Notes under the pieces: generated by a model
Told to the model about the DNA's origin: nothing
Databases searched by the model: none
The model's input: the letters and a program-made list of their open reading frames with translations, nothing else
Assembly (NCBI GenBank): GCA_000828975.1
Contig: AP014683.1
Coordinates: 355,520-387,519 of the forward strand
Length of the DNA: 32,000 nt
Direction of reading: 5' to 3'
Source: Burkholderiales bacterium GJ-E10
Lineage (GTDB): Bacteria > Pseudomonadota > Gammaproteobacteria > Burkholderiales > Burkholderiaceae_F
Shown here: positions 1,991 to 28,451 of the stretch, one piece after another
Position numbering within the stretch: position 1 is the stretch's first letter
How the letters are laid out: every line of letters begins with the position of its first letter
Translations under genes and position numbers: made by a program

Positions 1991-2239
1991 TCAGAACGGA
2001 TCGAGGAGGTAGCCTGGGAAGAGGTTCATCTGCCGGGGATCCGGGTTTTGCTCGTTGATGGGGCAGTTGTCGCGCTGGCGGCGCGCGTGTCTGGAGAGGC
2101 GAGAGGCGAAGTGCGTGGCGACGAAGTCGCCGAGGGCGTAGATGAGGTCCACGAGGCGAGCGGCGTCGGCGTCGTTGATGTCGTCGTCGTCGGAGTCGCA
2201 GAGGAACGAGGGCCAGGGATCGGAGTCGTAGGCGTTCAT
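1991..2239 (-). CDS. Small acidic hypothetical protein (last gene of the transposon operon)
   Basis: 82-aa ORF. Its start overlaps the ATPase stop in an ATGA arrangement (2236-2239). It has an Asp-rich tract (CDSDDDDINDAD). I recognise no family. Confidence 0.45.
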   Translation of the reverse strand: MNAYDSDPWPSFLCDSDDDDINDADAARLVDLIYALGDFVATHFASRLSRHARRQRDNCPINEQNPDPRQMNLFPGYLLDPF

Positions 2240-3036
2240 GGCCGGAACTCCTCGAGAGCGGTTTGGACGTGCTCGGTGCTGACCTGCTGGGATTTAGCCA
2301 GGGCGGCGGCGGACAGGGCGTAGTGGGCGGCGCGGTTGACGCGGCGCGGCAGTCCCTGGGAGGCTTGGTAGAGGGCCTCGGTGGCGGCGGGGTCGAACAG
2401 CGGCAGTGTGCTGCCGGCGAGTTGCAGGCGGTGGGTCAGGTAGGCGGGGAGCTCTTCACGGGAGAAGCCGTTGAGGTGGTAGCGCACGACGATGCGCTGC
2501 TCGAGCGATTCGTGCACCGCCATCGAGAGGCGGCGACGCAGCTCGGTCAGACCGACGAACAGCAGCGTCAAGCGGCGCTCGGAATCCATCGCGTAGTTGG
2601 TCAGCAGGCGCAGGTCTTCGAGCACGTCGTTGCGCAGGTGCTGCGCCTCGTCGATCACCAGGACGGGGTGCTGGCGCGCTTCGGAGGTCATGCGCAGGAC
2701 CTCGGCCTGGATCGCGCGGTAGGCGCAGGCACGGTTGCGCTCGATGGGCAGGCCGAGCTGCCAGGCGATCGACTTGTACATGTCGAGCACGTTGCCGGTC
2801 GAGAGCGTGACGTAGAACAGGCGATAGAGCCCTGGGTGCAGGGCCGAGGCGAGGTGCCGGCAGGCGGTGGTCTTGCCGCTGCCGACTTCGCCGGTGATCA
2901 GGCCGATGCCGCGCAGCTCGACGAGGTGCTGCAGCCGTGCCTGGGCCTCGCGCAGCGCCACGGCGCCGAAGAGCTCGTCGGGGGCGAGCGCGCGCTCGAA
3001 GGGATAGTGGGTGAAGCCGAAGTGGGCCAGATACAT
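2236..3036 (-). CDS. ExeA/GspA-like AAA+ ATPase (transposition helper, functional analogue of TniB/MuB)
   Basis: 266 aa with Walker A GEVGSGKT and Walker B VLVIDEAQHL. The overall sequence is typical of the ExeA-type ATPases found next to Mu-like DDE transposases. Its start shares one nucleotide with the transposase stop (TGATG at 3034-3038). Confidence 0.85.
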   Translation of the reverse strand: MYLAHFGFTHYPFERALAPDELFGAVALREAQARLQHLVELRGIGLITGEVGSGKTTACRHLASALHPGLYRLFYVTLSTGNVLDMYKSIAWQLGLPIERNRACAYRAIQAEVLRMTSEARQHPVLVIDEAQHLRNDVLEDLRLLTNYAMDSERRLTLLFVGLTELRRRLSMAVHESLEQRIVVRYHLNGFSREELPAYLTHRLQLAGSTLPLFDPAATEALYQASQGLPRRVNRAAHYALSAAALAKSQQVSTEHVQTALEEFRP

Positions 3037-4382
3037 CAGCGCGACTCCTCATCGGGTTTATCGGTCAGCAGCCTGCGCAGCGCCAGGCCGGGGGTGGGCT
3101 GCGATCCGGGCTGGGCCTGGGCCTCCAGAGTGCGGGAAGGCCGATTGCGGCGCACGAAGCAGTTGGCGTAGGCATCGACCGGCTTGGCGCGGTGGATGAA
3201 GACGCTGTTGTGCCAGACCTCGATGCCGCGGCCGGCGGGGGCGGCCGGGTCGAAGCGCAGGGTGACGGTCTCGTTGACGAGCGAGGCATCGACCTCGAAG
3301 ACGGTGCCGTTGAGGCTGACCGTGCGATCGCGGTGCACGCGCCGCTTGGCCTCGAAGAGGAACAGGTCATCGAGATCGAGGCGCGGGTCGGGTGCGCGCA
3401 GGTGCTCGGCGCACTGGGCCCAGCGCTCGAGCGGAGTCTGTCCATCGAGTCCGCGGTGCGGGGTGCGGTGATACTCGCCCTCGACCCAGGCCCACAGACG
3501 GCGGTTGAGCGCATCGAGACTGGCGGTGTCCTCGGCGCTGAGGCGCGAGAGCAGTTGGGAGCGTACGGTACGGAACCAGCGTTCCTGCTTGCCCTTGCCC
3601 GCAGGCTGGTAAGGGCGGGCGTGGATCAGCGCAACGCCCAGCTTGGCGCAGACGAGCGCGAGGTGCTGCGAGCGGTAGTTGGCGCCGTTATCGACGAACA
3701 GGCGCTGGGGGATCGAGCGGCGCATCAGGGCCTGCTTGAACACGGGCAGGAACGCGGCCGTGTTCTCCGACAGGGCGAAGGCGCAGTACGGCACGACGCG
3801 GGTGGCATCGTCGATGAACGCGATCAGGTAGGTCTTGCGGCGGCTTGCGCCGACGCTCACCGTCGGGCCGTGCATGACGTCGCTCATCCACAGCTGACCG
3901 GGCTGCGCGTATGCGAAGCGCCGGCGATCCTGGTCGGTGGGTTGCTCGGCGCCCTTGTGCATCAGGCCGGCACGGCTGAGCAGGCGGTGCACGGTGGTCC
4001 TGGGCACGTCCTGCTCGGGTCCGATCGCGCCTTGCTTGCGCAGGGTGTCGATGAGCAGCGGGATCGACAGCCCGGGCTGCTCGTCCTTGAGGCTGAGCAG
4101 CGCGTCGGCCACGGCCTGGGGCAGCGCACGGGATTGGCCGCGGTCGGATCGCGGCTTGGGCACCAGCGCGTCGAAGCCGCCGCGCCGGTACGACTGCAAC
4201 CAGTCGCGCAAGGTCTCGGTCGCCACCCGGGTGCGCGTGGTTCCCGGGATGACGTAGGACTGTTCGGCCTTGCGGGCGAGCAGCGCGTACAGGCCCGGCA
4301 TGGCGGGCGGACGGTGGATGAGGTCGGCGATCAGGCCGTAGCGAAACAGCGCCACGGCCCGGCCGGGATCGGGCTCGGACAT
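3036..4382 (-). CDS. DDE (rve/Mu-type) transposase
   Basis: 448 aa. The N-terminal region is HTH-like. The integrase core carries a candidate DDE triad: LWMSDVMHG, LFVDNGANY and KGKQERWF. The C-terminal region resembles Mu-transposase C-terminal domains. Confidence 0.9.
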   Translation of the reverse strand: MSEPDPGRAVALFRYGLIADLIHRPPAMPGLYALLARKAEQSYVIPGTTRTRVATETLRDWLQSYRRGGFDALVPKPRSDRGQSRALPQAVADALLSLKDEQPGLSIPLLIDTLRKQGAIGPEQDVPRTTVHRLLSRAGLMHKGAEQPTDQDRRRFAYAQPGQLWMSDVMHGPTVSVGASRRKTYLIAFIDDATRVVPYCAFALSENTAAFLPVFKQALMRRSIPQRLFVDNGANYRSQHLALVCAKLGVALIHARPYQPAGKGKQERWFRTVRSQLLSRLSAEDTASLDALNRRLWAWVEGEYHRTPHRGLDGQTPLERWAQCAEHLRAPDPRLDLDDLFLFEAKRRVHRDRTVSLNGTVFEVDASLVNETVTLRFDPAAPAGRGIEVWHNSVFIHRAKPVDAYANCFVRRNRPSRTLEAQAQPGSQPTPGLALRRLLTDKPDEESR

Positions 4383-11420: not shown

Positions 11421-12954
<1,534 letters not shown>

Positions 12955-12970
12955 GAGATCGCGCCTCGAT

Positions 12971-12996
12971 TCAAGCGTCCACACTTATCGGTTGTT
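12971..12996 (+). other. 16S precursor processing stem, 3' arm
   Basis: Complement of 11251-11276 (see that feature). Confidence 0.7.
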
Positions 12997-13080
12997 CATG
13001 TCCAAGGCAGGGTCGGAGAATGGCGCGACATTCGGCGCGCATAGCGCAAGCGCTGTTGGCCTGAGGAATCGATGATTCTA

Positions 13081-13157
13081 GGGTCTGTAGCTCAGCCGGT
13101 TAGAGCACCGTCTTGATAAGGCGGGGGTCGTTGGTTCGAATCCAACCAGACCCACCA
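13081..13157 (+). tRNA. tRNA-Ile (anticodon GAU)
   Basis: GGGTCTGTAGCTCAGCCGGTTAGAGCACCGTCTTGATAAGGCGGGGGTCGTTGGTTCGAATCCAACCAGACCCACCA. The acceptor stem GGGTCTG/CAGACCC pairs, the anticodon loop is CTTGATAAG, and CCA is encoded. Confidence 0.97.
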
Positions 13158-13178
13158 GCGTCTCGCGTCTCGCTTGAC

Positions 13179-13254
13179 GGGGGTGTAGCTCAGTTGGGAG
13201 AGCGCCTGCTTTGCAAGCAGGAGGTCATCGGTTCGATCCCGTTCACCTCCACCA
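13179..13254 (+). tRNA. tRNA-Ala (anticodon UGC)
   Basis: GGGGGTGTAGCTCAGTTGGGAGAGCGCCTGCTTTGCAAGCAGGAGGTCATCGGTTCGATCCCGTTCACCTCCACCA. It has the G3:U70 identity pair, the anticodon loop CTTTGCAAG, and an encoded CCA. Confidence 0.97.
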
Positions 13255-13329
13255 CTGCAGCCTTGTCGGAGTTCATGCGCGATGGCATTCGGTGCCATGG
13301 CGCCTGACCTCCGGGTCTGGACAGAATCT

Positions 13330-13342
13330 CGTTCTTTAACAA
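13330..13342 (+). promoter_or_regulatory. boxA antitermination element (16S-23S spacer)
   Basis: CGTTCTTTAACAA, the second boxA-like copy, lies between tRNA-Ala and 23S. Confidence 0.6.
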
Positions 13343-13477
13343 TTCGAAGAAGCAAAGCGCATCGGCTCTTGATATGAGAGGAGCCGATGCCGGGTTGAAT
13401 TATTGCATTCAAACTCTCAGCAACTTGAGAAACAGCAAATCGTCGCGACATGACGGACCGGAGACGGCACCGTTATA

Positions 13478-16357
<2,880 letters not shown>

Positions 16358-16502
16358 ATAACCGTGCTGCCTCCCTCGAGGTGTTGGGGTGAGAGTGCAA
16401 TCAACCAGGTCTGTTCCGAATCGGAACAGACGCTTGCTTCCTTCGAATTGGATCGTTCGTACGCGCCGGTTTCCGGCGCGCGACGAAAGGTCGTCCGTCT
16501 TC

Positions 16503-16620
16503 AGCCTGATGACCATAGCGAGGTGGAACCACTCCTTCCCATCCCGAACAGGACAGTGAAACGCCTCAGCGCCGATGATAGTGGGATGTATTTCCTGTGA
16601 AAGTAGGACATCGTCAGGCT
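16503..16620 (+). rRNA. rrf: 5S ribosomal RNA
   Basis: AGCCTGATGACCATAGCGAGGTGG...CCGAACAGGACAGTGAAACGCC...GTAGGACATCGTCAGGCT. Helix I (AGCCTGATGAC/GTCGTCAGGCT) pairs fully. The sequence aligns to E. coli 5S by eye. Ends are good to +/- 2 nt. Confidence 0.9.
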
Positions 16621-18186: not shown

Positions 18187-18834
18187 ATGGCGGAGTTCGA
18201 CGAGTCTGCGAACCGACTCACTCTGAAGCTCGTCTACTACGGGCCGGCGCTGAGCGGAAAGACGACGAACCTCCTGCAGTTGCATGACCGGCTTGCCCCG
18301 CCGGTGAAAGGGGAGGTGATGAGCCTCGATACGCGAGGCGATCGCACGCTCTTTTTCGATCTCCTCCCGATCGGGGCACGCTTGCCGGACGGCCTGCTGC
18401 TGAGGGTGAAGGTATATACCGTGCCGGGCCAGGTCGCCCACGACGGGACGCGCAAGGCGGTCCTGTCGCGGGCCGACGGCGTGGCGTTCGTCGCCGACTC
18501 GCAGCGCGGCCAAAGCATCAACAACGGCGAATCGTTCGAGAATCTCGCAGCGAACTGCGCGCGGGTCGGAATCGACTTCGACACGTTGCCGCTGGTCGTG
18601 CAGTACAACAAGCGGGATTTGCCGGGCGTCCTCACCGAAGCCGAAATCGAGGCGCGCTGGCATGGCGCTGCGTGGCCCCTGATGTTCGCATCGGCGGTTG
18701 CCGGGCAAGGCGTGTCCGAGACCTTCGCGGCATTGCTGCAGGCGGTTCTTGGACGCCACCATGCCGAAGGCGGACGGCTCCACCGGTGCGTTCCCGACGG
18801 CCGGGAAGTGCTGGAGGCGTTGGGGCTGGCATGA
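18187..18834 (+). CDS. mglA: MglA-family Ras-like small GTPase
   Basis: 215 aa. Diagnostic blocks align with Myxococcus xanthus MglA, recalled from memory: KLVYYGPALSGKTTNL (P-loop), DRTLFFDLLP (intrinsic Arg53), YTVPGQV (Gln82), VADSQ and QYNKRDL (NKxD). A GGAG Shine-Dalgarno lies 5 nt upstream of the ATG. Confidence 0.85.
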   Translation: MAEFDESANRLTLKLVYYGPALSGKTTNLLQLHDRLAPPVKGEVMSLDTRGDRTLFFDLLPIGARLPDGLLLRVKVYTVPGQVAHDGTRKAVLSRADGVAFVADSQRGQSINNGESFENLAANCARVGIDFDTLPLVVQYNKRDLPGVLTEAEIEARWHGAAWPLMFASAVAGQGVSETFAALLQAVLGRHHAEGGRLHRCVPDGREVLEALGLA

Positions 18835-20108
18835 AGGAAATCCGCTCATCCAGCGAGGTTTCGCCGCCGGCCGTCGCCGCGCCCGGACCTCGGTTCGATC
18901 GCGATCGGAGCCTGCACGAACTCCTGGACGACCTGCCGATGCCGCAGATCGGTGCGGCGATCGAACAGCTGTGCGGCCCCTATGTCCTGGTCGACGGCGC
19001 GGGTTCCGTTCATACCCGCCGGGGAGTGATCGCGATCGAGTACGCCGAGATCCCGATCCGGTGGCAGGCCGAGCCGATCGGGTTCCTGCGCGCCTCGGTT
19101 TCCGTCGAACCCGCCGCCCTGCGCAGCGCCGCCGACCTGCTGGAGGCGATCATCGCGTCGGCGGCGCGCTATGCCATGGCACGGGATCTCCACAGCGAGG
19201 CCGTCGCCGCCGATTTCGATGCCCTTCAGCGCAAACACGCGCAGCTCGCCGCGTCCGAGGCACGATATCGCGACCTGGCCGCAAGCCTGGAACGGCGGGT
19301 TGCAGACCAGGTGAAGGCCCTCGACAACGGCTACCGCCAGGTCTACCGTTCCGAGAAACTGGCATCGGTCGGCCGACTCGCCGCCGGTGTCGCCCATGAG
19401 ATCAACAACCCGATCGGCTTCGTGCGCAGCAACCTTGCCACCGCGCGCGGATATGTCGAGAAGTTCGGATCGGTGGGGGCGGCGTTGCGGGAAGGACGGG
19501 CAGGCGAAGCGGAGGGTCGATGGCGCGAATCCGACCTCGACTACATCCTGGAAGACTTTTCCGCGTTGATCGAGGAAAGCATCGCCGGCGCCGACCGGAT
19601 TGCGGCCATCGTCGGCGACCTGCGGCGCGCGGCCAATATCGACCGCGCCGAGGAAGCGCTCGCTGACGTCAACGAGCTCGTGCGCGCTGCCGTGGCACTT
19701 GCGTCGAACGGCGCCGCGGCGCATCCCCGCCTCGCGCTTCAGCTCCGGAACGTCCCGCCGATCCGCTGCCGGCCGGCGCAGATCAGCGAACTGATTCGGA
19801 ATCTTCTATCCAATTCGATCGCCGCGATCCAGTCGGGCGGGGAGGTCACGGTGCGTACCGAAATGGCCGATTCCTGCCTCGTTCTGGAAGTGATCGATAC
19901 CGGCGAGGGGATCGCACCGGAGACGCTCCCCCGGGTATTCGACCCCTTCTTCACCACCCGTGCCATCGGCCAAGGCACCGGCCTTGGGCTGACCGTATGC
20001 CGGGACATCGTTGAGGCGCACGAGGGAACGATCGATCTAGCCAGCGCGCCGGGGCGCGGAACCACCGTGACCGTGCGCATCCCTGCAGGATGGACAGGCG
20101 GAAGCTAG
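18831..20108 (+). CDS. Soluble sensor histidine kinase (uncharacterised N-terminal domain, coiled coil, HisKA, HATPase_c)
   Basis: The ATG at 18831 overlaps the mglA stop (ATGA). No TM segments are seen. H-box: EKLASVGRLAAGVAHEINNPIGFV. N-box: LIRNLLSNSIAAI. G-boxes: VIDTGEGI and GQGTGLGL. The upstream part of the 478-aa track ORF overlaps mglA and was discarded. Confidence 0.85.
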   Translation: MKEIRSSSEVSPPAVAAPGPRFDRDRSLHELLDDLPMPQIGAAIEQLCGPYVLVDGAGSVHTRRGVIAIEYAEIPIRWQAEPIGFLRASVSVEPAALRSAADLLEAIIASAARYAMARDLHSEAVAADFDALQRKHAQLAASEARYRDLAASLERRVADQVKALDNGYRQVYRSEKLASVGRLAAGVAHEINNPIGFVRSNLATARGYVEKFGSVGAALREGRAGEAEGRWRESDLDYILEDFSALIEESIAGADRIAAIVGDLRRAANIDRAEEALADVNELVRAAVALASNGAAAHPRLALQLRNVPPIRCRPAQISELIRNLLSNSIAAIQSGGEVTVRTEMADSCLVLEVIDTGEGIAPETLPRVFDPFFTTRAIGQGTGLGLTVCRDIVEAHEGTIDLASAPGRGTTVTVRIPAGWTGGS

Positions 20109-20124
20109 GCGGAACCCCCCCATC

Positions 20125-22362
20125 ATGTCGAACCTCGCCGCGTTTTTTACCGGGGCCGGCGGCGCCGGACTCACCACCGAGGCGGCAACACCGCCCTCGC
20201 GCTACCGGCTCCTGATCGTCGATGACGAACCCAACGTGTTGCGGGCGCTGGAGCGTGCCTTCCGCCAGGAAAATTACGACATCGTCACGGCGCCGAACGG
20301 CGTCGACGGCTTGCGCATTCTCGGGCAGCACGAAGTCCAGGTGGTGATCTCCGATTACATGATGCCCCGGATGAACGGCGCCGACTTTCTGCGGGAAGTG
20401 AAGGCGGCGTATCCCGACACGATCCGGATCATGCTCACCGGTCACGCCGACAGTGGTGCGGTGATGGGGGCGGTAAAGGATGGCGCGGTCTACAAGTTCA
20501 TTCTCAAGCCCTGGAACGACGACGATCTGCGCCTGAGCGTCGCCCTGGCGATCGAACAATACGAATTGTCGCGGAAGAACCGCGCGCTGCAGCAGGAAAA
20601 TCGCGACAGGGAGCGGGAAATCTCCGCCCTGGCCCGGATGGCCGTCAACAACCGCAGCCAACTCGCGCTCCTGTTGAACAAGAGGGCCTTGCTGACTTCC
20701 CAGCAGGTGCAGGAACTGCACCGCCTCCAGCAGCAGCGCAAGGAGCCCATGATCAAGCTCATCGTCGAGCGGGAATGGGTCGACCAAAACCGGATCTTCG
20801 ACATTCTCCGCAAGGACATGTTGGCGGAGGAGGTCGCATTACCGGAGTTCTCGATCGATCCGGCGGTTGCGGCCCTCGTTCCCCACGCGTTTTGCACCCG
20901 CGAATGGGTCCTGCCGGTTCGGTTGACCGGGCGCAAGCTGCTGCTCGCCATGGCCGATCCTCTCGACGCGGGGCTGCTCTCCGACGTGCGGTTCGTCACC
21001 GGTCTCGAGATCGTGCCGGCGCTCGCGGCGGTGGCGGCGATCCAAGCGAAGATTGCCGAAGTGTATGGCGGCAATGACACCACGGACCTGCGGGAGCTCA
21101 CCTCGGTCGTCGACGTCGCCGACCCGTACGAGGGAATCGAGATCGTCATCGAAGACGACGACGATGTGGCGCTCGAGGAGCTGCTGCGCCAGACCGAGGA
21201 GCCGCCATCGATCCGTCTTGCGAACTCGATCGTGCTCGAGGCGATCCGCCTGAAGGCAAGCGACATCCACATCCAGCCGCGGACCAAGAACGTGGCCGTG
21301 CGCTACCGGATCGACGGCGTGCTGATCGACAAGTTCCAGATTCCGGGCGGCATTCACCAATCGCTGGTGTCGCGCATCAAGGTCATGGCGGAACTCGACA
21401 TCAGCGAACGGCGGCGCCCCCAGGACGGCCGCATCACCGTCAAGACGCCTACGCGCATCGTCGATCTGCGAATCTCGACCTTGCCGACGATCAATGGCGA
21501 AAAGGTGGTCATGCGCATTCTCGACCGCAACTCGGCGGCACTGTCGCTGGAACAACTGGGTTTCCTCGATCGCGATCTGCTGCGGATCCAGCGGATCGCC
21601 GACAAGCCCCAGGGCATCATCCTGGCGACCGGCCCGACGGGAAGCGGCAAGACGACCACGCTCTACAGCCTGCTGCAGCACAGTGCAACACCGGGAAAGA
21701 ACTACATCACGCTGGAAGATCCGGTCGAGTACTACATGGATCAGGCCGGGCAGGTGCTGATCCGGGAACGGATCGGCCTCACGTTTCCGGTCGCGTTGCG
21801 CGCGATCCTGCGCCAGGATCCGGACGTGATCCTCCTCGGGGAGATCCGCGATGCGGAAACCGCGGAGGTCGCATTTCATGCCGCATCGACGGGCCATGTC
21901 GTGTTCTCCACGTTGCATACCAACTCGGCGGCGGCAACCGTTTCGCGCCTTCTCGACTTGGGTTTGAAGCGCGAGATCATCGCCACCACGCTCGAGGGCA
22001 TCATCGCGCAGCGCCTGGCGCGCAAGGTTTGCGCCCACTGTGGAGAGGAGCATGCGCCGGACCGCGCATTGCTTGCGCAATTGGGCCCGCGTTTTGTCCA
22101 GGAGGTGTCGTCGATCCGCCGCGGACGGGGCTGCGGAAAGTGCCACGGCACCGGCTATCTCGGCCGTGTCGGTCTTTACGAGGTGCTGTCCCCCGACGAC
22201 ACGCTGCGCCAGCAGATCGCCGCCGGCGTGAGCGTTCTCGAGATGGCGCACAGCGCCCGCGAGCGGGGGTTTGCATCCCTGATCGACGACGCACTCGAGA
22301 AGATCAAGGCCGGAATGACCAATCCCGAGGAAATCTTCCGGGTGCTCGGTCCGCAGAACTGA
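20125..22362 (+). CDS. Response-regulator receiver fused to T2SSE_N domain and PilB/GspE-family secretion ATPase
   Basis: 745 aa. REC domain: LLIVDDEPNVL...VVISDYMMPRMNG...FILKPWNDDDL. A coiled-coil linker follows, then a GSPII_E_N-like domain (...LLLAMADPLDAGLLSDVRFVTGLEIVPALAA). The ATPase core has Walker A GPTGSGKTTT, Asp box/Walker B DPDVILLGEIRD, His box TGHVVFSTLHTN and a tetracysteine motif CAHCGEE...CGKCHGTGYLGR. Confidence 0.9.
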   Translation: MSNLAAFFTGAGGAGLTTEAATPPSRYRLLIVDDEPNVLRALERAFRQENYDIVTAPNGVDGLRILGQHEVQVVISDYMMPRMNGADFLREVKAAYPDTIRIMLTGHADSGAVMGAVKDGAVYKFILKPWNDDDLRLSVALAIEQYELSRKNRALQQENRDREREISALARMAVNNRSQLALLLNKRALLTSQQVQELHRLQQQRKEPMIKLIVEREWVDQNRIFDILRKDMLAEEVALPEFSIDPAVAALVPHAFCTREWVLPVRLTGRKLLLAMADPLDAGLLSDVRFVTGLEIVPALAAVAAIQAKIAEVYGGNDTTDLRELTSVVDVADPYEGIEIVIEDDDDVALEELLRQTEEPPSIRLANSIVLEAIRLKASDIHIQPRTKNVAVRYRIDGVLIDKFQIPGGIHQSLVSRIKVMAELDISERRRPQDGRITVKTPTRIVDLRISTLPTINGEKVVMRILDRNSAALSLEQLGFLDRDLLRIQRIADKPQGIILATGPTGSGKTTTLYSLLQHSATPGKNYITLEDPVEYYMDQAGQVLIRERIGLTFPVALRAILRQDPDVILLGEIRDAETAEVAFHAASTGHVVFSTLHTNSAAATVSRLLDLGLKREIIATTLEGIIAQRLARKVCAHCGEEHAPDRALLAQLGPRFVQEVSSIRRGRGCGKCHGTGYLGRVGLYEVLSPDDTLRQQIAAGVSVLEMAHSARERGFASLIDDALEKIKAGMTNPEEIFRVLGPQN

Positions 22363-22446: not shown

Positions 22447-23796
22447 TCAGGAATGGAGCGGATCGATCCGGATCTGCAGTCGGATCGGTTGCCCGGTCCG
22501 GATCTCGAATTGCCGGATCCGCCGGATGAGCGGCTCCGTCAATGCATGTCCGGCAACGAGCAGCAGCACGCCTTGGGGCGACAGGAAGTCTGCCGCCAGG
22601 ACCATTCCAGGTGCCAGCTCGCCGGTCGCCATCGGTACGGCCGTTCCCGAAACCGGTGCCTGGCGATGTTCCGACAGCCGGATCTGCAGGAACACGTCCA
22701 CAACCTCGGGGTCGAACTGGGTGCCGCGCCCCTGCCGCAGCAGGATCTGCGCCTCGTCCTCGTTCGGCATCGCGCCGCCCAGATGTCCTTCCTGCAGTTC
22801 GTCGAAGGCATCGGCGACGGCGAGAATGCGCGCGCTCCGACTGATCTCGATCCCGACCTTCCGATCCGGGTAGCCCAGGCCGTCGAAGCGCTCATGGTGT
22901 TCGTGGATGATCGCCGCGACCCCATGGAGATCTTCCAGCGGCATGAGCAAGTGCTCTCCCAGTACGGGATGCTGCTGGTATTGGGCGAGTTCCTCGGGTT
23001 CCATCCGCGCGACCGGCTTCGCCAGCATTGCGTCGGGCAGGCCGATGTGCCCGATGTCATGCAGCAATGCGGCGACGAAGAGATCCTGCTTCTCCGATTC
23101 GTCCAGGCCCATCGCCTGCGCGATCGACCGGGCCGCGGCGGCAACCCGGCGGCCGTGGCCTCCCAGCCGTCCGCCGCGCAACTCCAGGACGTTGGAAAAC
23201 ACCTTGATCGAGGTGAGAAAGGTGGATTTCAGCTTCCGGTTGGCCTGTGCCAGTTCCTGCGTCCGCTCCTGCACCCGTTCTTCGAGATGTTCGTTGAGCG
23301 CCCGCAACGCGAGATTCTGCTGCTGCGTGAGGGCCTCCAGCCGATCCTTGTCGCGTTGCAGCTCGACGCGTTCCAGGCCCTGATGGACCGCCGCGCGCAG
23401 TTCCGATTCGTCCCAGGGCTTGTTGAAGTAGCGGTGGATCCGGCCCCGGTTGACGGCGGCGATCGCCGCGCTCATGTCCGCATGCCCGGTGAGCAGGATG
23501 CGGATCGTATCGGGCCAGGAAGCCTGGACCTGTTCGAGAAACTGCGCCCCGTCCATCCCGGGCATCCGCATGTCGGAAATCACCACGTCGATCGGCGTTT
23601 CCCGCAGCATGGCGAGCCCCTCGGGTCCGCTTCCCGCGGTGAGGATGCACAGATCCGGCGCCCGGAGGGCGCGCCGCAGGGACGCGAGAATGTTGGGCTC
23701 GTCATCGACGCAGAGCACGGTCGGCGGGGGCGCCTTCTGCACGGCGATCGCAAGGCCTTGCGGCGCGTCGGTGGAATCCGGGATCGGTACGGTCAT
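22447..23796 (-). CDS. RpfG-family response regulator (REC + HD-GYP c-di-GMP phosphodiesterase) with C-terminal extension
   Basis: 449 aa. REC: VLCVDDEPNIL...VVISDMRMPGMDG...YFNKPWDESEL. A coiled coil follows. HD-GYP: LLHDIGHIGL and HHERFDGLGYP. There are about 75 extra C-terminal residues. An AAGGAA Shine-Dalgarno lies upstream of the ATG. Confidence 0.9.
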   Translation of the reverse strand: MTVPIPDSTDAPQGLAIAVQKAPPPTVLCVDDEPNILASLRRALRAPDLCILTAGSGPEGLAMLRETPIDVVISDMRMPGMDGAQFLEQVQASWPDTIRILLTGHADMSAAIAAVNRGRIHRYFNKPWDESELRAAVHQGLERVELQRDKDRLEALTQQQNLALRALNEHLEERVQERTQELAQANRKLKSTFLTSIKVFSNVLELRGGRLGGHGRRVAAAARSIAQAMGLDESEKQDLFVAALLHDIGHIGLPDAMLAKPVARMEPEELAQYQQHPVLGEHLLMPLEDLHGVAAIIHEHHERFDGLGYPDRKVGIEISRSARILAVADAFDELQEGHLGGAMPNEDEAQILLRQGRGTQFDPEVVDVFLQIRLSEHRQAPVSGTAVPMATGELAPGMVLAADFLSPQGVLLLVAGHALTEPLIRRIRQFEIRTGQPIRLQIRIDPLHS

Positions 23797-23811
23797 GGGC
23801 GGTTCCTTGCT

Positions 23812-24756
23812 CTATGCGGCTGGCGGCTCGGGCTGCCGTACCGGCAGGCGGACGACGAAGCGCGTCCCCCTTCCGGGTTGGCTATGCACCGCGATGTCGC
23901 CGTGGTGTTTCCGCACGATGCCGTAGGAAAGCGACAGCCCTAGTCCGGTTCCTTGTCCGATCGGCTTGGTCGTGAAGAACGGGTCGAAAATGCGCGCGGC
24001 GTTTTCGGGCGGAATGCCGCAACCATCGTCGGCGACCTCGATCCGGACCTGGCCATCGGATTCGTCGTATGCGGTACGGATGGTGATGGTACCGCGGCGA
24101 TTTCCATCCATCGCCTGGGCGGCATTGACGAGCAGGTTCATGATGATCTGGTTGATTTCGGATGGCAGGCATTCCACGTCCGGAAGATCGCCGTATTCCC
24201 GGACGACGTCGGCCTTGTACTTGATCTCGTTGTTGACGATGTTGAGCGTCGATTCGATGCCGCGATGAAGGTCCGCATGCTCCCACTCCTGGCGGGCGTC
24301 GACGCGCGAAAAGTCCTTGAGATCCTGCACGATCTTGCGCACGCGTTCGATCCCTTCCCGCGACTCCGCCATCAGGGTGGGAATGTCTTCCTTGAGAAAA
24401 TCGAGTTCGATCTCCTCGCGCAGTTGCCGCAGTTGCATTCGGGCCATGGGGTCGGCCACCAGCGATTCCGCCCGTTCGTAGGCATCCAGCATGCGGAAGA
24501 GCTGCATGACGTATTTTTCGAGACTGCCGAAGTTGCAGAACACATATCCGACCGGATTGTTGATCTCGTGCGCAACGCCCGCGGCAAGCTGGCCGATCGA
24601 GGCCAGCTTCTCCGACTGCATCAGCATGTTGCGGGTCTGCGAGAGTTTCCGGTTCGCCTCCTTCAGTTCCTCGTTGGCGCGGATGAGATTGCGGATCTGA
24701 TCGGCGTCGCGCGTGGCCTCGGCGGGAACGGGAGTGCGCGAATCATCGGAGTCCAT
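23812..24756 (-). CDS. Histidine kinase lacking a recognisable sensor domain (coiled coil, HisKA, HATPase_c)
   Basis: The start MDSDDSRT at 24756 gives 314 aa. H-box: EKLASIGQLAAGVAHEINNPVGYV. N-box: IIMNLLVNAAQAM. G-boxes: VADDGCGI and GQGTGLGL. The longer 450-aa track ORF runs through the HDOD gene in another frame and was trimmed. Confidence 0.85.
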   Translation of the reverse strand: MDSDDSRTPVPAEATRDADQIRNLIRANEELKEANRKLSQTRNMLMQSEKLASIGQLAAGVAHEINNPVGYVFCNFGSLEKYVMQLFRMLDAYERAESLVADPMARMQLRQLREEIELDFLKEDIPTLMAESREGIERVRKIVQDLKDFSRVDARQEWEHADLHRGIESTLNIVNNEIKYKADVVREYGDLPDVECLPSEINQIIMNLLVNAAQAMDGNRRGTITIRTAYDESDGQVRIEVADDGCGIPPENAARIFDPFFTTKPIGQGTGLGLSLSYGIVRKHHGDIAVHSQPGRGTRFVVRLPVRQPEPPAA

Positions 24757-25639
24757 GCCGTATCTCCCGGAACGCGGTTTCGACGCGATGGAAAAGGCGC
24801 AGAGGCGCTTCGGTCGACCATTGCAGCCGATCCCACGATGCACGCTGCATGGGCGGTACCAGGTCGTCGCCGGCGGCATGGAGGTCGAGTGCATGGGCGA
24901 TGCCGTCGGCGTTGTGAACCAGGTCGGCAAGCGAGGCACGGCCGGGCCGCCTGGACGAGGTCCCGGCGACCGCATCGGAATCCTCGTCCTCCCCGGACAG
25001 ATGACCGGGGTTGTGGTGCCATGCGATCGCATCGATGACCGCTTCGGTGAAGTGCCAGTGGGCGGCGATCCAGGCGCCGACCTGGCAGTGATCGATCCCC
25101 AATGCCGCACGTTCGGCTTCGAGCCGGGGAAGGTCGCGATCCCGCGCGTCGCGCACCACGGCACCGTATTCCTGCGGAAAGTGGGAGGCGAGGGCGAGCG
25201 AACCCAGATCGTGGATCAAGCCCGCGGTGAAGGCTTCGTGCATCGCATGGCCCGACTCCCGCGCGAGTTCCTGCGCGGCGATCGCAGTCGCCAGGGAGTG
25301 CTCCCAATATTTCGGAAAGTCGAAGGTCGGGCAGCCGGGGCCGTGTAATCGCTGTGCCAAGGACTCCTGCATCACGATGGTTTCGACGGTGCGCAGTCCG
25401 ATGAGGCGGATCGCGTCTCCCACCGTGGAGATCGATCCCGACATGCCGTAAAACGACGAGTTCGCAACCCGCAGGATCCGCGCCGTGATGGCCGGATCGA
25501 TGTCGATTTTGCGCGCGAGATCGTCGAACCCGATGTCGTCATCACGGAATGCGGCCATCAACTCGTGCGCTGCCGCGGGAAGCATCGGCAGCGCCTGGAC
25601 GCGGTCGCGGACCTGCTCGGCATCGATGCGCGCCATCAT
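24743..25639 (-). CDS. HDOD domain protein
   Basis: The start MMARIDAEQV at 25639 gives 298 aa. HDOD-typical blocks: LPMLPAAAHELMAAF, DPAITARILRVANSSFYG, VGDAIRLIGLRTV and GLIHDLGSLAL. Its stop overlaps the downstream kinase start by 14 nt. The start is uncertain. Confidence 0.8.
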   Translation of the reverse strand: MMARIDAEQVRDRVQALPMLPAAAHELMAAFRDDDIGFDDLARKIDIDPAITARILRVANSSFYGMSGSISTVGDAIRLIGLRTVETIVMQESLAQRLHGPGCPTFDFPKYWEHSLATAIAAQELARESGHAMHEAFTAGLIHDLGSLALASHFPQEYGAVVRDARDRDLPRLEAERAALGIDHCQVGAWIAAHWHFTEAVIDAIAWHHNPGHLSGEDEDSDAVAGTSSRRPGRASLADLVHNADGIAHALDLHAAGDDLVPPMQRASWDRLQWSTEAPLRLFHRVETAFREIRHGLR

Positions 25640-25808
25640 GACGGGGGCTCCGTGCGGTAGCGCCGCATCAGATGCATGAGCGGATGCACCCGGCCTTCGC
25701 GCAGCCAGACGCGGAACAGGATGTCGAGCCGGCGGAGTTCCACCGATGACGAGGCGGGCGCCGTCGGGTCCGGCGGCACCGCTTCGTTCCGGGGGGATCG
25801 AGGATCGG

Positions 25809-28451
25809 TCATGAGTCGGCTCCTGCCGCAAGGGGCGCCGCAAACGGTTCGGAAGGGAACAAGATGAGCAGATTCTCCAGGGCGTTGTCCGCCGCCGCCA
25901 GCGTACGCCGGAATGCAAGGTACCGGCGACTCCCGATTTCGAGCCGGGTCGCCGTCGAATCCGGTTTGCGGAGGACTTCCGTGAGCGGGCCCGGCAACAT
26001 CGCCGCCGAACCGCCGATGACCGCCGGGATGGCCGGATCGAACCGCGCCGGATCCCCTTGCACGAATACGATCAAGCCCTCGGCATCCACTCCGATGATC
26101 ACCGCGGGAAGGCTGTCGAGGATCCGGCGCACGCCGTTGGCCGCGCGTGCCAGGACGCGTGCATGGTCGCTGTGGCGGGACACCGCCTCCTGCAGGCGTG
26201 CGTTCATCTGCTCGAGATCGGCCTTTGCCGCTTCGACTTCCCGCGCCAGGCGGCGGTTTTCGTCGGCCAATTCCTTTTTGCGGAACGCATCCGCGATCCG
26301 GTTGCGCAGTTTCTCGTCATCCCAGGGCTTGGTGAGGAACTGGTAGATCGCGCCTTCGTTGACGGCATCGATGATCGACTGCAGATCGGTGAATCCCGAC
26401 AGCACCATGCGAACGGTGTCGGGTACCAGCTCTTTGGCGCGGCGCAGGAATTCGACACCGGTCATGCCGGGCATGCGCTGGTCGGAGAGGATCACGTCGA
26501 CATGGGTTTCGGCGAGGAGCTTGAGCCCTTCGGCAGCGCTGTGGGCGAGGAGGATCCGATACCCTTCCCGGCGCAGGAGGCGGCGCAGCGAGGAAAGGAT
26601 GTTTTCCTCGTCGTCGACCAGCAGCAGAGTCCGCTGTGTTCCGGCGCCGCGCAGGAACTGCGCCGGCAGCCGTCGGTCCTCGCGCAGCATGGCCGTGATC
26701 TCGTCCGCCTCCACCGCTTTGCTGAAGTAGTGCCCCTGGACGAGATCGCACCCGTTGGTCGACAAGGTCTGGAGTTGATCCTCCGTCTCCACGCCTTCGG
26801 CGAGCACCCGAAGCTGGAGGCTGTGCGACATGGCGATGATGGCGCGGGTGACCGAGGCGGTTTCCGGCGATAGCAGCACGTCGGGGATGAGCGAGCGGTC
26901 GACCTTCACGACGTCGACGGGCAGTCGATGGAGCCGGCTGAGGCTTGCGTGGCCGGTGCCGAAATCGTCGAGCGCGATTTCGAACCCGATCGCCTTCAGG
27001 TCGCGCAGGACCGCGGCCGCCTGCTGCGCGTCGTCGAGGAGCGCCGTTTCGGGCACTTCCAGTCCCAGCCAGGACGGATCGCAGTGGCAGTCGAGCACGA
27101 TCCGCTGCACCCAGGCGGAAAAGTTCGGCTGCTGGAGATGGCCCCGGGACAGGTTGACCGTGATCCGCGGCGCGTGCAGGCCGGCGGCGCGCCACGCGAG
27201 CGCCTGCCGGCAGGCTTCCCGGAGCACCCAGCCGCTTACGGCGAGGATCATGTCGCTGCGTTCCGACAGGGGAATGAACTCGGCGGGCGGCACCTCGCCC
27301 AGCGCCGGGGAGCGCCAGCGCAGCAGGGCCTCGACGGACGCGATTTCCCCGTTCGTCAGGTTCATGACCGGCTGGTACGCAAGCGAGAGTTCACCGGCGG
27401 TGATCGCTCCGGGCAGCGCGGACTCGATTCGCAGGGAGCGGATGACGTCCGGGTCGGCCTCGCCCGCGAAGGCAATGGTTCCGGGGGCTGCGCCCGACGC
27501 GGTCGACTCGGCGCGATCGATGAGGTTGGCCGGGTCGTCGGCGTCGCCGGGGAATCCCGCAATGCCGATCGCGCATTGCGGGAATCGTTCCGACGCACCG
27601 ATCCGCGCCGGGCGGTTGACGGCGGCCCGCAACTGGCGCGCCCGGGCCACCAGCGTTTCCGGCGTCTGGCGTTGGCCCGGGTCGGGGAGCACGGCGAATC
27701 CGGCTTCGCCGATGCGTGCGAGGAGATCTCCGGGGCCGCACTGTTCCCCCAGCCGGGATGCGATCGTCATGGCGAGGCTGTTCGACGCGCCCGATCCGGC
27801 GGCGATTCCCAGGTCCGCCGCGATCGTCGGCACCTGGATGGCGATCAGCGCGAGCGGAATCGTGCCCGATGCGGGGGCTGCGCCCCGGCTTCGGAGCGCA
27901 GCGGTTTCCAGATCGACCTCCTCGCGCAGCGATGCGCGATTGGGCAGCCCGGTGACTTCATCGCGATCGGTGAGCTCCTTGATGCGCCGCTCCGCCTCGA
28001 CGTGCAGGGTGATGTCCTGGAGCAGGCCGACGCCATGGAGATCACCGCTGTCGAAGCGTTCGAGAATGCCGCGATGGCGGACGATCAGGGTCCTGCCGTC
28101 GCCGTGGACGGCGCGGTGGCGGAATTCGAAGGGTTGCCCGGGGGTCGCCATCCGCCAGAACGCCGTCACGTACGCCTGGTCGGAGGCGGGGATCCAGGGG
28201 CAGGTGTCGAGCGGGAAGCAGCAAGGGTCGGGCGACCCGCCGAGCATCGCGCTGAGCGCCGGCGATGCCGTGAGCGTACCGGCCGGAAACGCAACCTCGA
28301 ACAGGCCTACGCCGCCCAGGGACTCCAGCCAGGTGAGCTTGCGGGTGTTGTCCGCCTTTTGACGCGCGAACCGCTCGGGGTCGGGATGATCGCGCACCGT
28401 GGTCGGCTCCGTCGCCGCATCGGCGGAAGGACGGTTCGAGCAAGGCTGCAT
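25809..28451 (-). CDS. Multidomain c-di-GMP signalling protein: PAS, degenerate GGDEF, EAL, REC, coiled coil, C-terminal PAS-like
   Basis: 880 aa. The GGDEF-domain entry is TGLPNRASL, but the active-site motif reads GEAGF (27696-27710) instead of GG(D/E)EF. EAL motifs are EALLRW, DDFGTGHAS and AEGVET. An internal REC follows (LLLVDDEENIL...VILSDQRMPGMTG...FLTKPWDDEKL). The C-terminal segment is PAS-like (LDSLPAVIIGVDAEGLIVFVQG). Confidence 0.85.
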   Translation of the reverse strand: MQPCSNRPSADAATEPTTVRDHPDPERFARQKADNTRKLTWLESLGGVGLFEVAFPAGTLTASPALSAMLGGSPDPCCFPLDTCPWIPASDQAYVTAFWRMATPGQPFEFRHRAVHGDGRTLIVRHRGILERFDSGDLHGVGLLQDITLHVEAERRIKELTDRDEVTGLPNRASLREEVDLETAALRSRGAAPASGTIPLALIAIQVPTIAADLGIAAGSGASNSLAMTIASRLGEQCGPGDLLARIGEAGFAVLPDPGQRQTPETLVARARQLRAAVNRPARIGASERFPQCAIGIAGFPGDADDPANLIDRAESTASGAAPGTIAFAGEADPDVIRSLRIESALPGAITAGELSLAYQPVMNLTNGEIASVEALLRWRSPALGEVPPAEFIPLSERSDMILAVSGWVLREACRQALAWRAAGLHAPRITVNLSRGHLQQPNFSAWVQRIVLDCHCDPSWLGLEVPETALLDDAQQAAAVLRDLKAIGFEIALDDFGTGHASLSRLHRLPVDVVKVDRSLIPDVLLSPETASVTRAIIAMSHSLQLRVLAEGVETEDQLQTLSTNGCDLVQGHYFSKAVEADEITAMLREDRRLPAQFLRGAGTQRTLLLVDDEENILSSLRRLLRREGYRILLAHSAAEGLKLLAETHVDVILSDQRMPGMTGVEFLRRAKELVPDTVRMVLSGFTDLQSIIDAVNEGAIYQFLTKPWDDEKLRNRIADAFRKKELADENRRLAREVEAAKADLEQMNARLQEAVSRHSDHARVLARAANGVRRILDSLPAVIIGVDAEGLIVFVQGDPARFDPAIPAVIGGSAAMLPGPLTEVLRKPDSTATRLEIGSRRYLAFRRTLAAADNALENLLILFPSEPFAAPLAAGADS

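Follow-up and report, generated by a model that had tools for sequence, protein, structure and literature searches.

A PilB/MshE-type ATPase with a fused receiver domain shares a gene cassette with an MglA-type GTPase and a histidine kinase in Burkholderiales bacterium GJ-E10

The stretch of DNA analysed here (32,000 nucleotides, in the following the window) belongs to the complete 3.28-Mb genome of Burkholderiales bacterium GJ-E10 (assembly GCA_000828975.1, contig AP014683.1, positions 355,520 to 387,519 of the forward strand). At 20125..22362 on the plus strand, it encodes a protein of 745 amino acids in one frame from ATG to TGA, with no interruption. Pfam identified three domains: Response_reg at residues 30–138 (E=3e-24, 85.7 bits, cut-off 30.2), MshEN (PF05157) at residues 237–317 (E=5e-18, 65.3 bits, cut-off 23.1) and T2SSE (PF00437) at residues 357–739 (E=4e-126, 421 bits, cut-off 24.9). 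Ahead of the first domain, F8, Y27 and R28 are conserved in the family alignment. The gene for this REC-MshEN-T2SSE protein, REC-ATPase hereafter, is the last of a cassette of three. It follows genes for an MglA-type small GTPase (18187..18834, +, 215 amino acids) and a soluble histidine kinase, HK1 (18831..20108, +, 425 amino acids). The fusion has been catalogued since 2016 and is common in metagenomes; greater interest lies in the almost invariable presence of an MglA-type GTPase and a kinase beside it.

The receiver (20212..20538, +) has the acidic pocket D33/D34, the phospho-acceptor D77 (codon 20353-20355), T105 and K128, the last in a KPW motif, with CheY-like spacing. None of the five residues varies among 121 orthologues, and a single T-to-S replacement is all that changes in this set among 14 representatives of more distant clusters with an N-terminal receiver. 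The invariance supports a receiver that is competent for phosphorylation. The closest solved receivers are those of HupR (2jk1, E=1e-27), NtrC1 and DctD (also 1ny5 and 1l5y) and of HD-GYP response regulators. A structure was predicted with AlphaFold2 from the family alignment, with a mean predicted local distance difference test (pLDDT) of 68 and about 85 for the receiver. In the model, a long helix of residues 133–170 (20521..20634, +; pLDDT 62–72) continues receiver helix alpha5 to the next domain, the MshEN_N bundle. It stands where the preliminary description had placed a coiled coil, and the prediction is that of a single long helix.

This four-helix bundle (residues 179–231; 20659..20817, +; defined by alignment and AlphaFold2, pLDDT about 80) is the site of two 24-residue motifs for cyclic di-GMP (c-di-GMP). 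The canonical motif, present twice in tandem, is RLGxx(L/V/I)(L/V/I)xxG(L/V/I)(L/V/I)xxxxLxxxLxxQ (Wang et al. 2016). The register in REC-ATPase was taken from an alignment to Myxococcus xanthus PilB (3jc8); the alignment to Vibrio cholerae MshE (5htl) was weak (E=0.07). Motif 1 reads QLALLLNKRALLTSQQVQELHRLQ: Arg1 is replaced by Q179, Gly3 by A181 and Gly10 by A188, which is Asn in most orthologues, and Gln24 is retained. Motif 2 reads PMIKLIVEREWVDQNRIFDILRKD: Arg1 is replaced by P208, a proline invariant in the family, Gly3 by I210, Gly10 by E217 (Glu or Asp) and Gln24 by D231 (Asp or Glu). Its start is P-[ILVM]-I in all 121 orthologues, and tandem canonical RLG...Q motifs are lacking throughout this set, both motifs being degenerate. 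The hydrophobic core positions persist, and the model has four helices; the bundle was thus kept and the ligand contacts were not.

The substitution G11I abolished c-di-GMP binding by MshE. Because an isoleucine sits at this position in REC-ATPase, the protein is predicted not to bind c-di-GMP. XpsE lost binding through comparable changes (PMC5013675), and the loss in REC-ATPase is a well-founded prediction. Constitutive activity was seen in a triple-Leu variant of MshE that does not bind, a hint that MshEN_N acts as a regulatory switch. That phosphorylation may replace nucleotide sensing in REC-ATPase is a reasonable reading of these changes. The same genome encodes two near-identical MshE-like ATPases of about 780–830 amino acids, each with four canonical RLG...Q motifs. 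Their loci lie outside the window at C1:187085-188317(+) and C1:3248144-3249373(-), with no platform gene adjoining.

The bundle is followed by the alpha-beta subdomain MshEN/T2SSE_N1 (N1, residues 237–317; 20833..21075, +; PF05157, pLDDT 80–89) and the PilB/GspE-class ATPase core (residues 357–739; 21193..22341, +; assigned by Pfam T2SSE, motifs and Foldseek). The core consists of an N2 domain and a C-terminal domain (CTD, pLDDT 85–93). Walker A (GPTGSGKT, residues 503–510; 21631-21654), the Asp box (TLEDPVEY), Walker B (RQDPDVILLGEIRD; 21811-21852), the His box (TGHVVFSTLHT; 21889-21921) and the tetracysteine C636/C639/C670/C673 (22030-22143) can be read from the plus strand. These motifs and the arginine-finger stretch RRRPQDGR are invariant in an alignment of 57 family sequences. 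A tetracysteine zinc motif in the CTD separates extension and secretion ATPases from PilT. The best Foldseek matches are Thermus PilF (5oiu), Geobacter PilB (5tsh) and Vibrio GspE, with E-values of about 1e-36 to 1e-35. Template modelling scores, normalised to the target, of 0.72–0.74 for PilF 5oiu and PilB 5tsh agree with the N2+CTD fold, with the N2 domain modelled at low confidence.

Two NCBIfam models match the protein below their equivalog cut-offs: PilB TIGR02538 (536.5 bits, cut-off 675.65) and GspE TIGR02533 (522.2 bits, cut-off 630.25). The GspE model aligns only from residue 252, the PilB model from residue 180. The latter alignment points to a PilB/MshE-like layout of four-helix bundle, N1, N2 and CTD. 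The gene product is best explained as a catalytically competent, PilB/MshE-type hexameric ATPase that would itself be a response regulator. A preliminary description, made from the letters of the window, had recognised the receiver with its phospho-acceptor Asp, the complete PilB/GspE-class core with its zinc motif, the order REC, T2SSE_N/MshEN, T2SSE and an only loosely matched c-di-GMP motif. All four observations were borne out, the last with degenerate half-sites throughout the family.

In a search of 5.8 billion proteins, the best 120 matches agree with REC-ATPase in all three Pfam domains; they measure 739–763 amino acids and are 63–96% identical. Where a source is named, it is Sulfuricella, Sulfuriferula, Sulfurimicrobium, Gallionella or Nitrosomonadales. 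The 90%-identity cluster of REC-ATPase holds 15 sequences from NCBI, ENA and Logan assemblies, each of exactly 745 amino acids. Six hundred genomes were sampled, 200 of the source order and 400 of the phylum. In the order sample, a full-length, stop-free orthologue with 59–67% identity is present in 16 of 200 genomes (about 8%), and one more genome has a receiver-less copy. The next-best matches in this sample are canonical PilB or GspE (37–44% identity). The spread is patchy: about 12 of 61 families carry the orthologue, and it is missing from all four other sampled genomes of the source family. The phylum sample added two carriers in another order. An artificial fusion of a response-regulator gene with a pilB-like gene, by misassembly or frameshift, is contradicted by the single frame, the uniform length (about 745 amino acids) and domains of more than 120 orthologue clusters, the 15 near-identical copies from independent assemblies and the 16 full-length orthologues; its probability is negligible. 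Of the two findings that would have refuted the preliminary description, a fusion artefact is thereby dismissed, and a receiver without phospho-acceptor Asp is dismissed by D77.

Receivers are attached to such cores in several ways. Of the 150 best representatives of clusters at 50% identity, 21 carry the receiver at the N-terminus and 44 at the C-terminus; 16 have two cores in tandem, which gives 32 core rows in the tree. Many metagenomic PilB-class proteins are tandem double-core proteins of about 1000 amino acids (P0130-P0155) or end in one to three receivers (MshEN-T2SSE-REC; P0152-P0270). Trees were calculated with FastTree for 174 cores and with IQ-TREE (LG+C20) for 75. REC-ATPase falls into a clade of N-terminal-receiver proteins (FastTree support 100, IQ-TREE SH-aLRT 99). 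In both trees, this clade is separate from the PilB clade, GspE and the MshE-like paralogues of the source genome. Three smaller N-terminal-receiver lineages arise elsewhere in the trees, which indicates that the receiver was fused more than once. In FastTree, the clade groups loosely with the GspE of the source genome and C-terminal-REC fusions, a grouping that is lost under the IQ-TREE mixture model. The Tad ATPase is far from the clade in FastTree. Distant members of the N-terminal-receiver clade (P0123, P0126, P0132, P0133, P0148 and L031:2914-5346) have an extra C-terminal double zinc ribbon (Pfam DZR), which REC-ATPase lacks. A contig search with an alignment of distant N-terminal-receiver proteins yielded patterns that fell on Walker motifs; among the matches listed, one locus (L031) was informative and the rest were generic PilB.

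In the cassette, the start of HK1 overlaps the mglA stop as ATGA, and 16 nt separate the HK1 stop from the start codon of REC-ATPase. Scans for promoters and terminators near the operon gave nothing above shuffled sequences. The trio recurs in every annotated context, namely in Sulfuricella denitrificans skB26, on a Sulfuriferula-like contig and in four others, and in seven loci from the sampled genomes. It is also present in a metagenome-assembled genome named 'Deltaproteobacteria bacterium', with an ATPase on the distant zinc-ribbon branch. At a threshold of E<=1e-20, an MglA homologue was detected in 14 other genomes of the order sample. All 14 carry REC-ATPase, on the same contig and strand and 1.3–1.5 kb downstream of mglA, and none of the 184 ATPase-less genomes has an MglA homologue. 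Both carriers added by the phylum sample have mglA upstream of the ATPase gene. For the 600 genomes together, mglA is located about 1.4 kb upstream in 16 of 18 orthologue carriers. This cassette membership was missed by the preliminary description.

The GTPase is related to M. xanthus MglA (5ymx, E=1e-44). Its P-loop, GPALSGKT, has an alanine at the Gly21 position. All 15 cassette MglAs have Ala or Ser at this position and keep Arg53 and Gln82. No Roadblock/MglB gene was found in the source genome. HK1, the presumed cognate kinase of the receiver, has the Pfam domains HisKA and HATPase_c and the H-box AHEINNP. Its N-terminal region (residues about 25–93; 18831-19110) was predicted by AlphaFold2 as alpha-alpha-beta4 followed by one long helix into DHp (pLDDT 83). 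Foldseek gave no match at E<0.01 for this domain; PAS, GAF and MglB/Roadblock (3t12_B, E=0.85) were weak.

A second signalling group lies on the minus strand. Convergent with the REC-ATPase gene is a REC-HD-GYP response regulator (22447..23796), a c-di-GMP phosphodiesterase of the NosR family by Pfam and NCBIfam (NF053512, 518 bits, cut-off 400), which in most genomes is syntenic with the cassette. It is followed by HK2 (23812..24756, 314 amino acids), a second histidine kinase that is a paralogue of HK1 and likewise syntenic, an HDOD protein (24743..25639; Pfam HDOD E=1.5e-58) and a GGDEF-EAL-REC protein (25809..28451; Pfam) that recurs near the cassette elsewhere. The commonest wider gene order is HDOD, HK2 in one to three copies, REC-HD-GYP, a stand-alone REC, MglA, HK1 and REC-ATPase, often with GGDEF-EAL-REC. 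The source genome lacks the stand-alone receiver, which most genomes have between REC-HD-GYP and mglA. In the window and in a relative with 81% identity, the HDOD/HK2/REC-HD-GYP/GGDEF-EAL-REC half is inverted downstream of the cassette (22447-28451). The best NCBIfam match of HK1 and HK2 is NF038348 'T2SS_HK', with 220 and 353 bits, respectively, both less than the cut-off of 450. The model name suggests that curators link this kinase subfamily to loci of the type II secretion system (T2SS).

The window has no platform, secretin or pilin gene, in line with the preliminary description, which had seen no local machine. In the genome, a single set of the pilMNOPQ type has its PilM at 3.216 Mb and its secretin at 3.220 Mb, and a single pilB-pilC pair is located at 3.25 Mb. 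There is also one T2SS, with gspD/E/F at 2.72 Mb, and one Tad-like system at 2.10 Mb; PilT and PilU are encoded as well. T2SSF platform genes are located at 2.10, 2.72 and 3.25 Mb. Five PilB/GspE-class ATPases face three platform genes; REC-ATPase and the two MshE-like enzymes have none adjoining. REC-ATPase does not belong with canonical PilB, which would share its clade and adjoin pilC/pilD: it is in a separate clade and has no T2SSF gene nearby. Its gene was never beside a T2SSF gene in five other carriers examined, so the missing local machine is a conserved property of the family.

Two carriers lack mglA and HK1. Both belong to the genus g47, and their REC-ATPase gene is directly downstream of one or more type IVa pilin genes and a TPR gene. 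The order on one strand is MshE-like ATPase, GAF-HD-GYP, type IVa pilin(s) (N_methyl and Pilin), TPR and REC-ATPase. The receiver is intact in both proteins. This arrangement is the only direct genomic link of the family to a filament system and points to type IV pili. In the two g47 loci, L021 (G043:C6) and L022 (G187:C32), genes for a PP2C, an FHA protein and a metallo-beta-lactamase-fold phosphodiesterase precede the MshE-like ATPase. This ATPase, the orthologue of the two MshE-like enzymes of the source genome, lies about 5–6 kb from REC-ATPase.

In the window, a low-GC stretch (0.54–0.55) at 11–16.6 kb was considered as an island tied to the locus and rejected; it is an rRNA operon. The operon is complete (11421-16619), with 16S (11421-12951), two tRNAs (13081-13251), 23S (13479-16357) and 5S (16505-16619). 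At 2236-4382 (-), a Mu/Tn7-like transposase gene (rve, Mu-transpos_C) precedes one for an AAA_22 ATPase, the two making up a TniA/TniB-like pair. A glycosyltransferase open reading frame of shortened appearance is located at 1118-1816.

MglA controls type IV pili in Myxococcus and Bdellovibrio (PMC4316618); the cassette neighbourhood was not described in that work (Wuichet & Sogaard-Andersen 2014). The link to this regulator and the pilin adjacency in g47 argue for type IV pili as the target. REC-ATPase is tentatively seen as a phosphorylation-gated, conditional alternative extension ATPase of type IVa pili and the output of the MglA/HK1 cassette, a proposal with nearly an even chance of being correct. 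Phospho-regulation is likely; the type IV pilus as target machine is the most weakly inferred part. HK1, possibly controlled in its activity by the MglA-like GTPase with the overlapping gene, would phosphorylate D77 of the fused receiver. The signal would pass via the alpha5-linker helix to the MshEN_N bundle, which in MshE is the c-di-GMP-operated switch and has lost the ligand contacts here. The outcome would be a switch of ring assembly, ATPase activity or docking, the direction of which we can only infer. Having no platform protein of its own, REC-ATPase would work on the single type IVa machine of the cell (PilC/PilM) beside the housekeeping PilB.

A more far-reaching version is somewhat unlikely in its entirety. 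MglA(Ala21), the kinase and the REC-PilB would form a self-contained switch from a G protein via a phosphorelay to a motor. The GTPase, independent of a GTPase-activating protein, would control a kinase that occupies the usual gene position of MglB. The kinase would phosphorylate a dedicated second extension ATPase, and in MglB-less bacteria this step would determine the time or the pole of pilus extension by the shared type IVa machine. Phosphorylation would take over the role that c-di-GMP has in MshE.

Several observations weigh against a pilus motor. No pilus gene adjoins REC-ATPase in the source genome or in 16 of 18 other genomes, and the pilin-adjacent arrangement comes from two genomes of one genus. 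A canonical PilB-PilC pair is present in five of five carrier genomes examined, so that REC-ATPase was never shown to be the only extension motor. Two genomes, G054 and G187, had looked promising as carriers of REC-ATPase as sole PilB-class enzyme; a Pfam search found PilB-PilC pairs in both. The PilB and GspE scores (536 and 522) are almost equal and both below cut-off, and IQ-TREE does not resolve the deep order of branching among the core, PilB and GspE. In the AlphaFold2 model, the inter-domain geometry is unreliable (predicted template modelling score 0.42, N2 domain pLDDT below 50), so the model lends no structural support to a mode of receiver action. No functional study of the fusion or of its link to MglA was found in the literature searched, which lacked most subscription journals; the preliminary description had likewise called the fusion functionally uncharacterised.

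The lack of a platform gene beside REC-ATPase in any genome examined would also suit an ATPase without a machine. Such a protein would be a nucleotide-dependent signalling or scaffolding output of the cassette, acting for example on exopolysaccharide, polarity or the neighbouring c-di-GMP enzymes. Signalling genes lie densely around it (those for REC-HD-GYP, HDOD, GGDEF-EAL-REC and a second kinase), and a canonical PilB is present in all carriers examined. For M. xanthus PilB, a similar second function as a signalling protein in exopolysaccharide regulation is reported (PMC5544727). The conservation pattern speaks for a motor instead: catalytic, arginine-finger and zinc-motif residues and the motor-docking N1/N2 domains are invariant across the family, and in g47 the gene follows pilin genes. 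A pure signalling role is judged somewhat unlikely. Another machine could be driven as well. The source genome has a T2SS and a Tad system, the GspE score is close to the PilB score and FastTree loosely placed the clade with GspE and C-terminal-REC fusions. This grouping vanishes under the better tree model, the Tad ATPase is far off, and the N-terminus is of the PilB/MshE type with four-helix bundle and N1, covered by the PilB model from residue 180 and by the GspE model only from 252. With pilin and MglA links that point to type IV pili, a T2SS or Tad motor is very unlikely.

A different question is whether MshEN_N still binds c-di-GMP or another nucleotide. The protein would then combine phosphorylation with a c-di-GMP level that the HD-GYP/EAL enzymes nearby set. 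The retained four-helix bundle with its hydrophobic core positions would allow this, c-di-GMP enzymes are conserved neighbours and perfect motif conservation may be unnecessary for binding (Wang et al. 2016, PMC5013675). The losses are extensive, however: motif 2 lacks Arg, both Gly and Gln and has Ile at the Gly position where G11I abolished MshE binding, and in motif 1, Arg, Gly and Gly have given way to Gln, Ala and Ala (the last being Asn in most orthologues). Comparable changes cost XpsE its binding, and the genome has two separate MshE-like ATPases with four canonical motifs each. Such a dual input appears improbable.

The proposed phosphorylation-gated extension ATPase can be compared with known systems. 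The best solved relatives are PilB of M. xanthus (3jc8) and Geobacter (5tsg, 5zfr, 6olj), which match residues 176–740 with E about 1e-122. They share the layout of MshEN_N, N1, N2 and CTD, all catalytic motifs and the zinc site. REC-ATPase differs by the additional N-terminal receiver and linker helix, the TIGR02538 score below cut-off, the separate clade and the lack of a pilC/pilD neighbour. M. xanthus PilB retains a canonical second c-di-GMP motif, whereas both half-sites of REC-ATPase are degenerate. MshE of V. cholerae (5htl), the c-di-GMP-activated ATPase of the MSHA pilus, has the same MshEN followed by T2SSE and uses the four-helix bundle as regulatory module. In REC-ATPase, the RLG...Q contacts are replaced in both motifs and a phospho-receiver is attached instead.

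NtrC1, DctD and HupR have the same layout of a receiver and a long alpha5-linker helix ahead of an oligomeric ATPase. In NtrC1 and DctD, the receiver-linker dimer controls assembly of the ATPase ring. The shared layout suggests that phosphorylation may control ring assembly in REC-ATPase as well. The analogy concerns the regulatory logic only: as a secretion ATPase of the PilT/GspE class, REC-ATPase is no AAA+ activator of sigma-54. A further parallel is the control that MglA has over type IV pili in M. xanthus (MglA/MglB/RomR, SofG) and in Bdellovibrio, which has MglA without MglB. The cassette likewise links an MglA homologue genetically with a PilB-type ATPase and with receiver proteins. 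In contrast to the M. xanthus system, the source genome has no MglB/Roadblock gene, a kinase follows mglA, Gly21 is Ala/Ser and the ATPase itself carries a receiver. Receiver proteins that act on PilB in trans are reported for Synechocystis (PATAN response regulators) and Xanthomonas (DrdR). In these regulators (Synechocystis PATAN-REC, Xanthomonas DrdR, PilG/PilH), a phospho-receiver likewise controls the extension motor; in REC-ATPase, it is fused covalently to the motor, with no PATAN domain.

The architecture itself has a record. Supplementary Table 4 of Wang et al. 2016 (Nat Commun 7:12481, PMC5013675) lists 'REC - MshEN - T2SSE' with Gmet_3473 of Geobacter metallireducens as example, a distribution over beta-, gamma- and delta-proteobacteria and an empty reference column. 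The domain order is the same and the stated spread matches that seen here. The entry gives the architecture without a function and without mention of the MglA/kinase cassette, and the likeness to Gmet_3473 is one of architecture. In view of this entry, of the orthologues in 16 of 200 order genomes and of the N- and C-terminal receivers in 21 and 44 of 150 representatives, the term unusual in the preliminary description does not hold for sequence space. Its observation is confirmed, and its interpretation is partly supported.

Characterised motors of this class (PilB, GspE and MshE) respond to partner proteins, such as PilZ/FimX, SgmX and PATAN response regulators, or to MshEN-bound c-di-GMP. 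The linkage of REC-ATPase to an MglA GTPase and a kinase points to an undescribed way of switching such motors. The fusion itself weighs less as a discovery, given its earlier listing and its frequency in metagenomes. If the proposal is true, the motor polypeptide itself receives the phospho-signal of a two-component system. Cultivable carriers (S. denitrificans skB26 and Sulfuriferula) and soluble proteins make the idea directly testable. Through the strict linkage to the GTPase, MglA biology would also reach beyond Myxococcus, Bdellovibrio and Thermus, into Betaproteobacteria that oxidise sulfur and iron and have no MglB.

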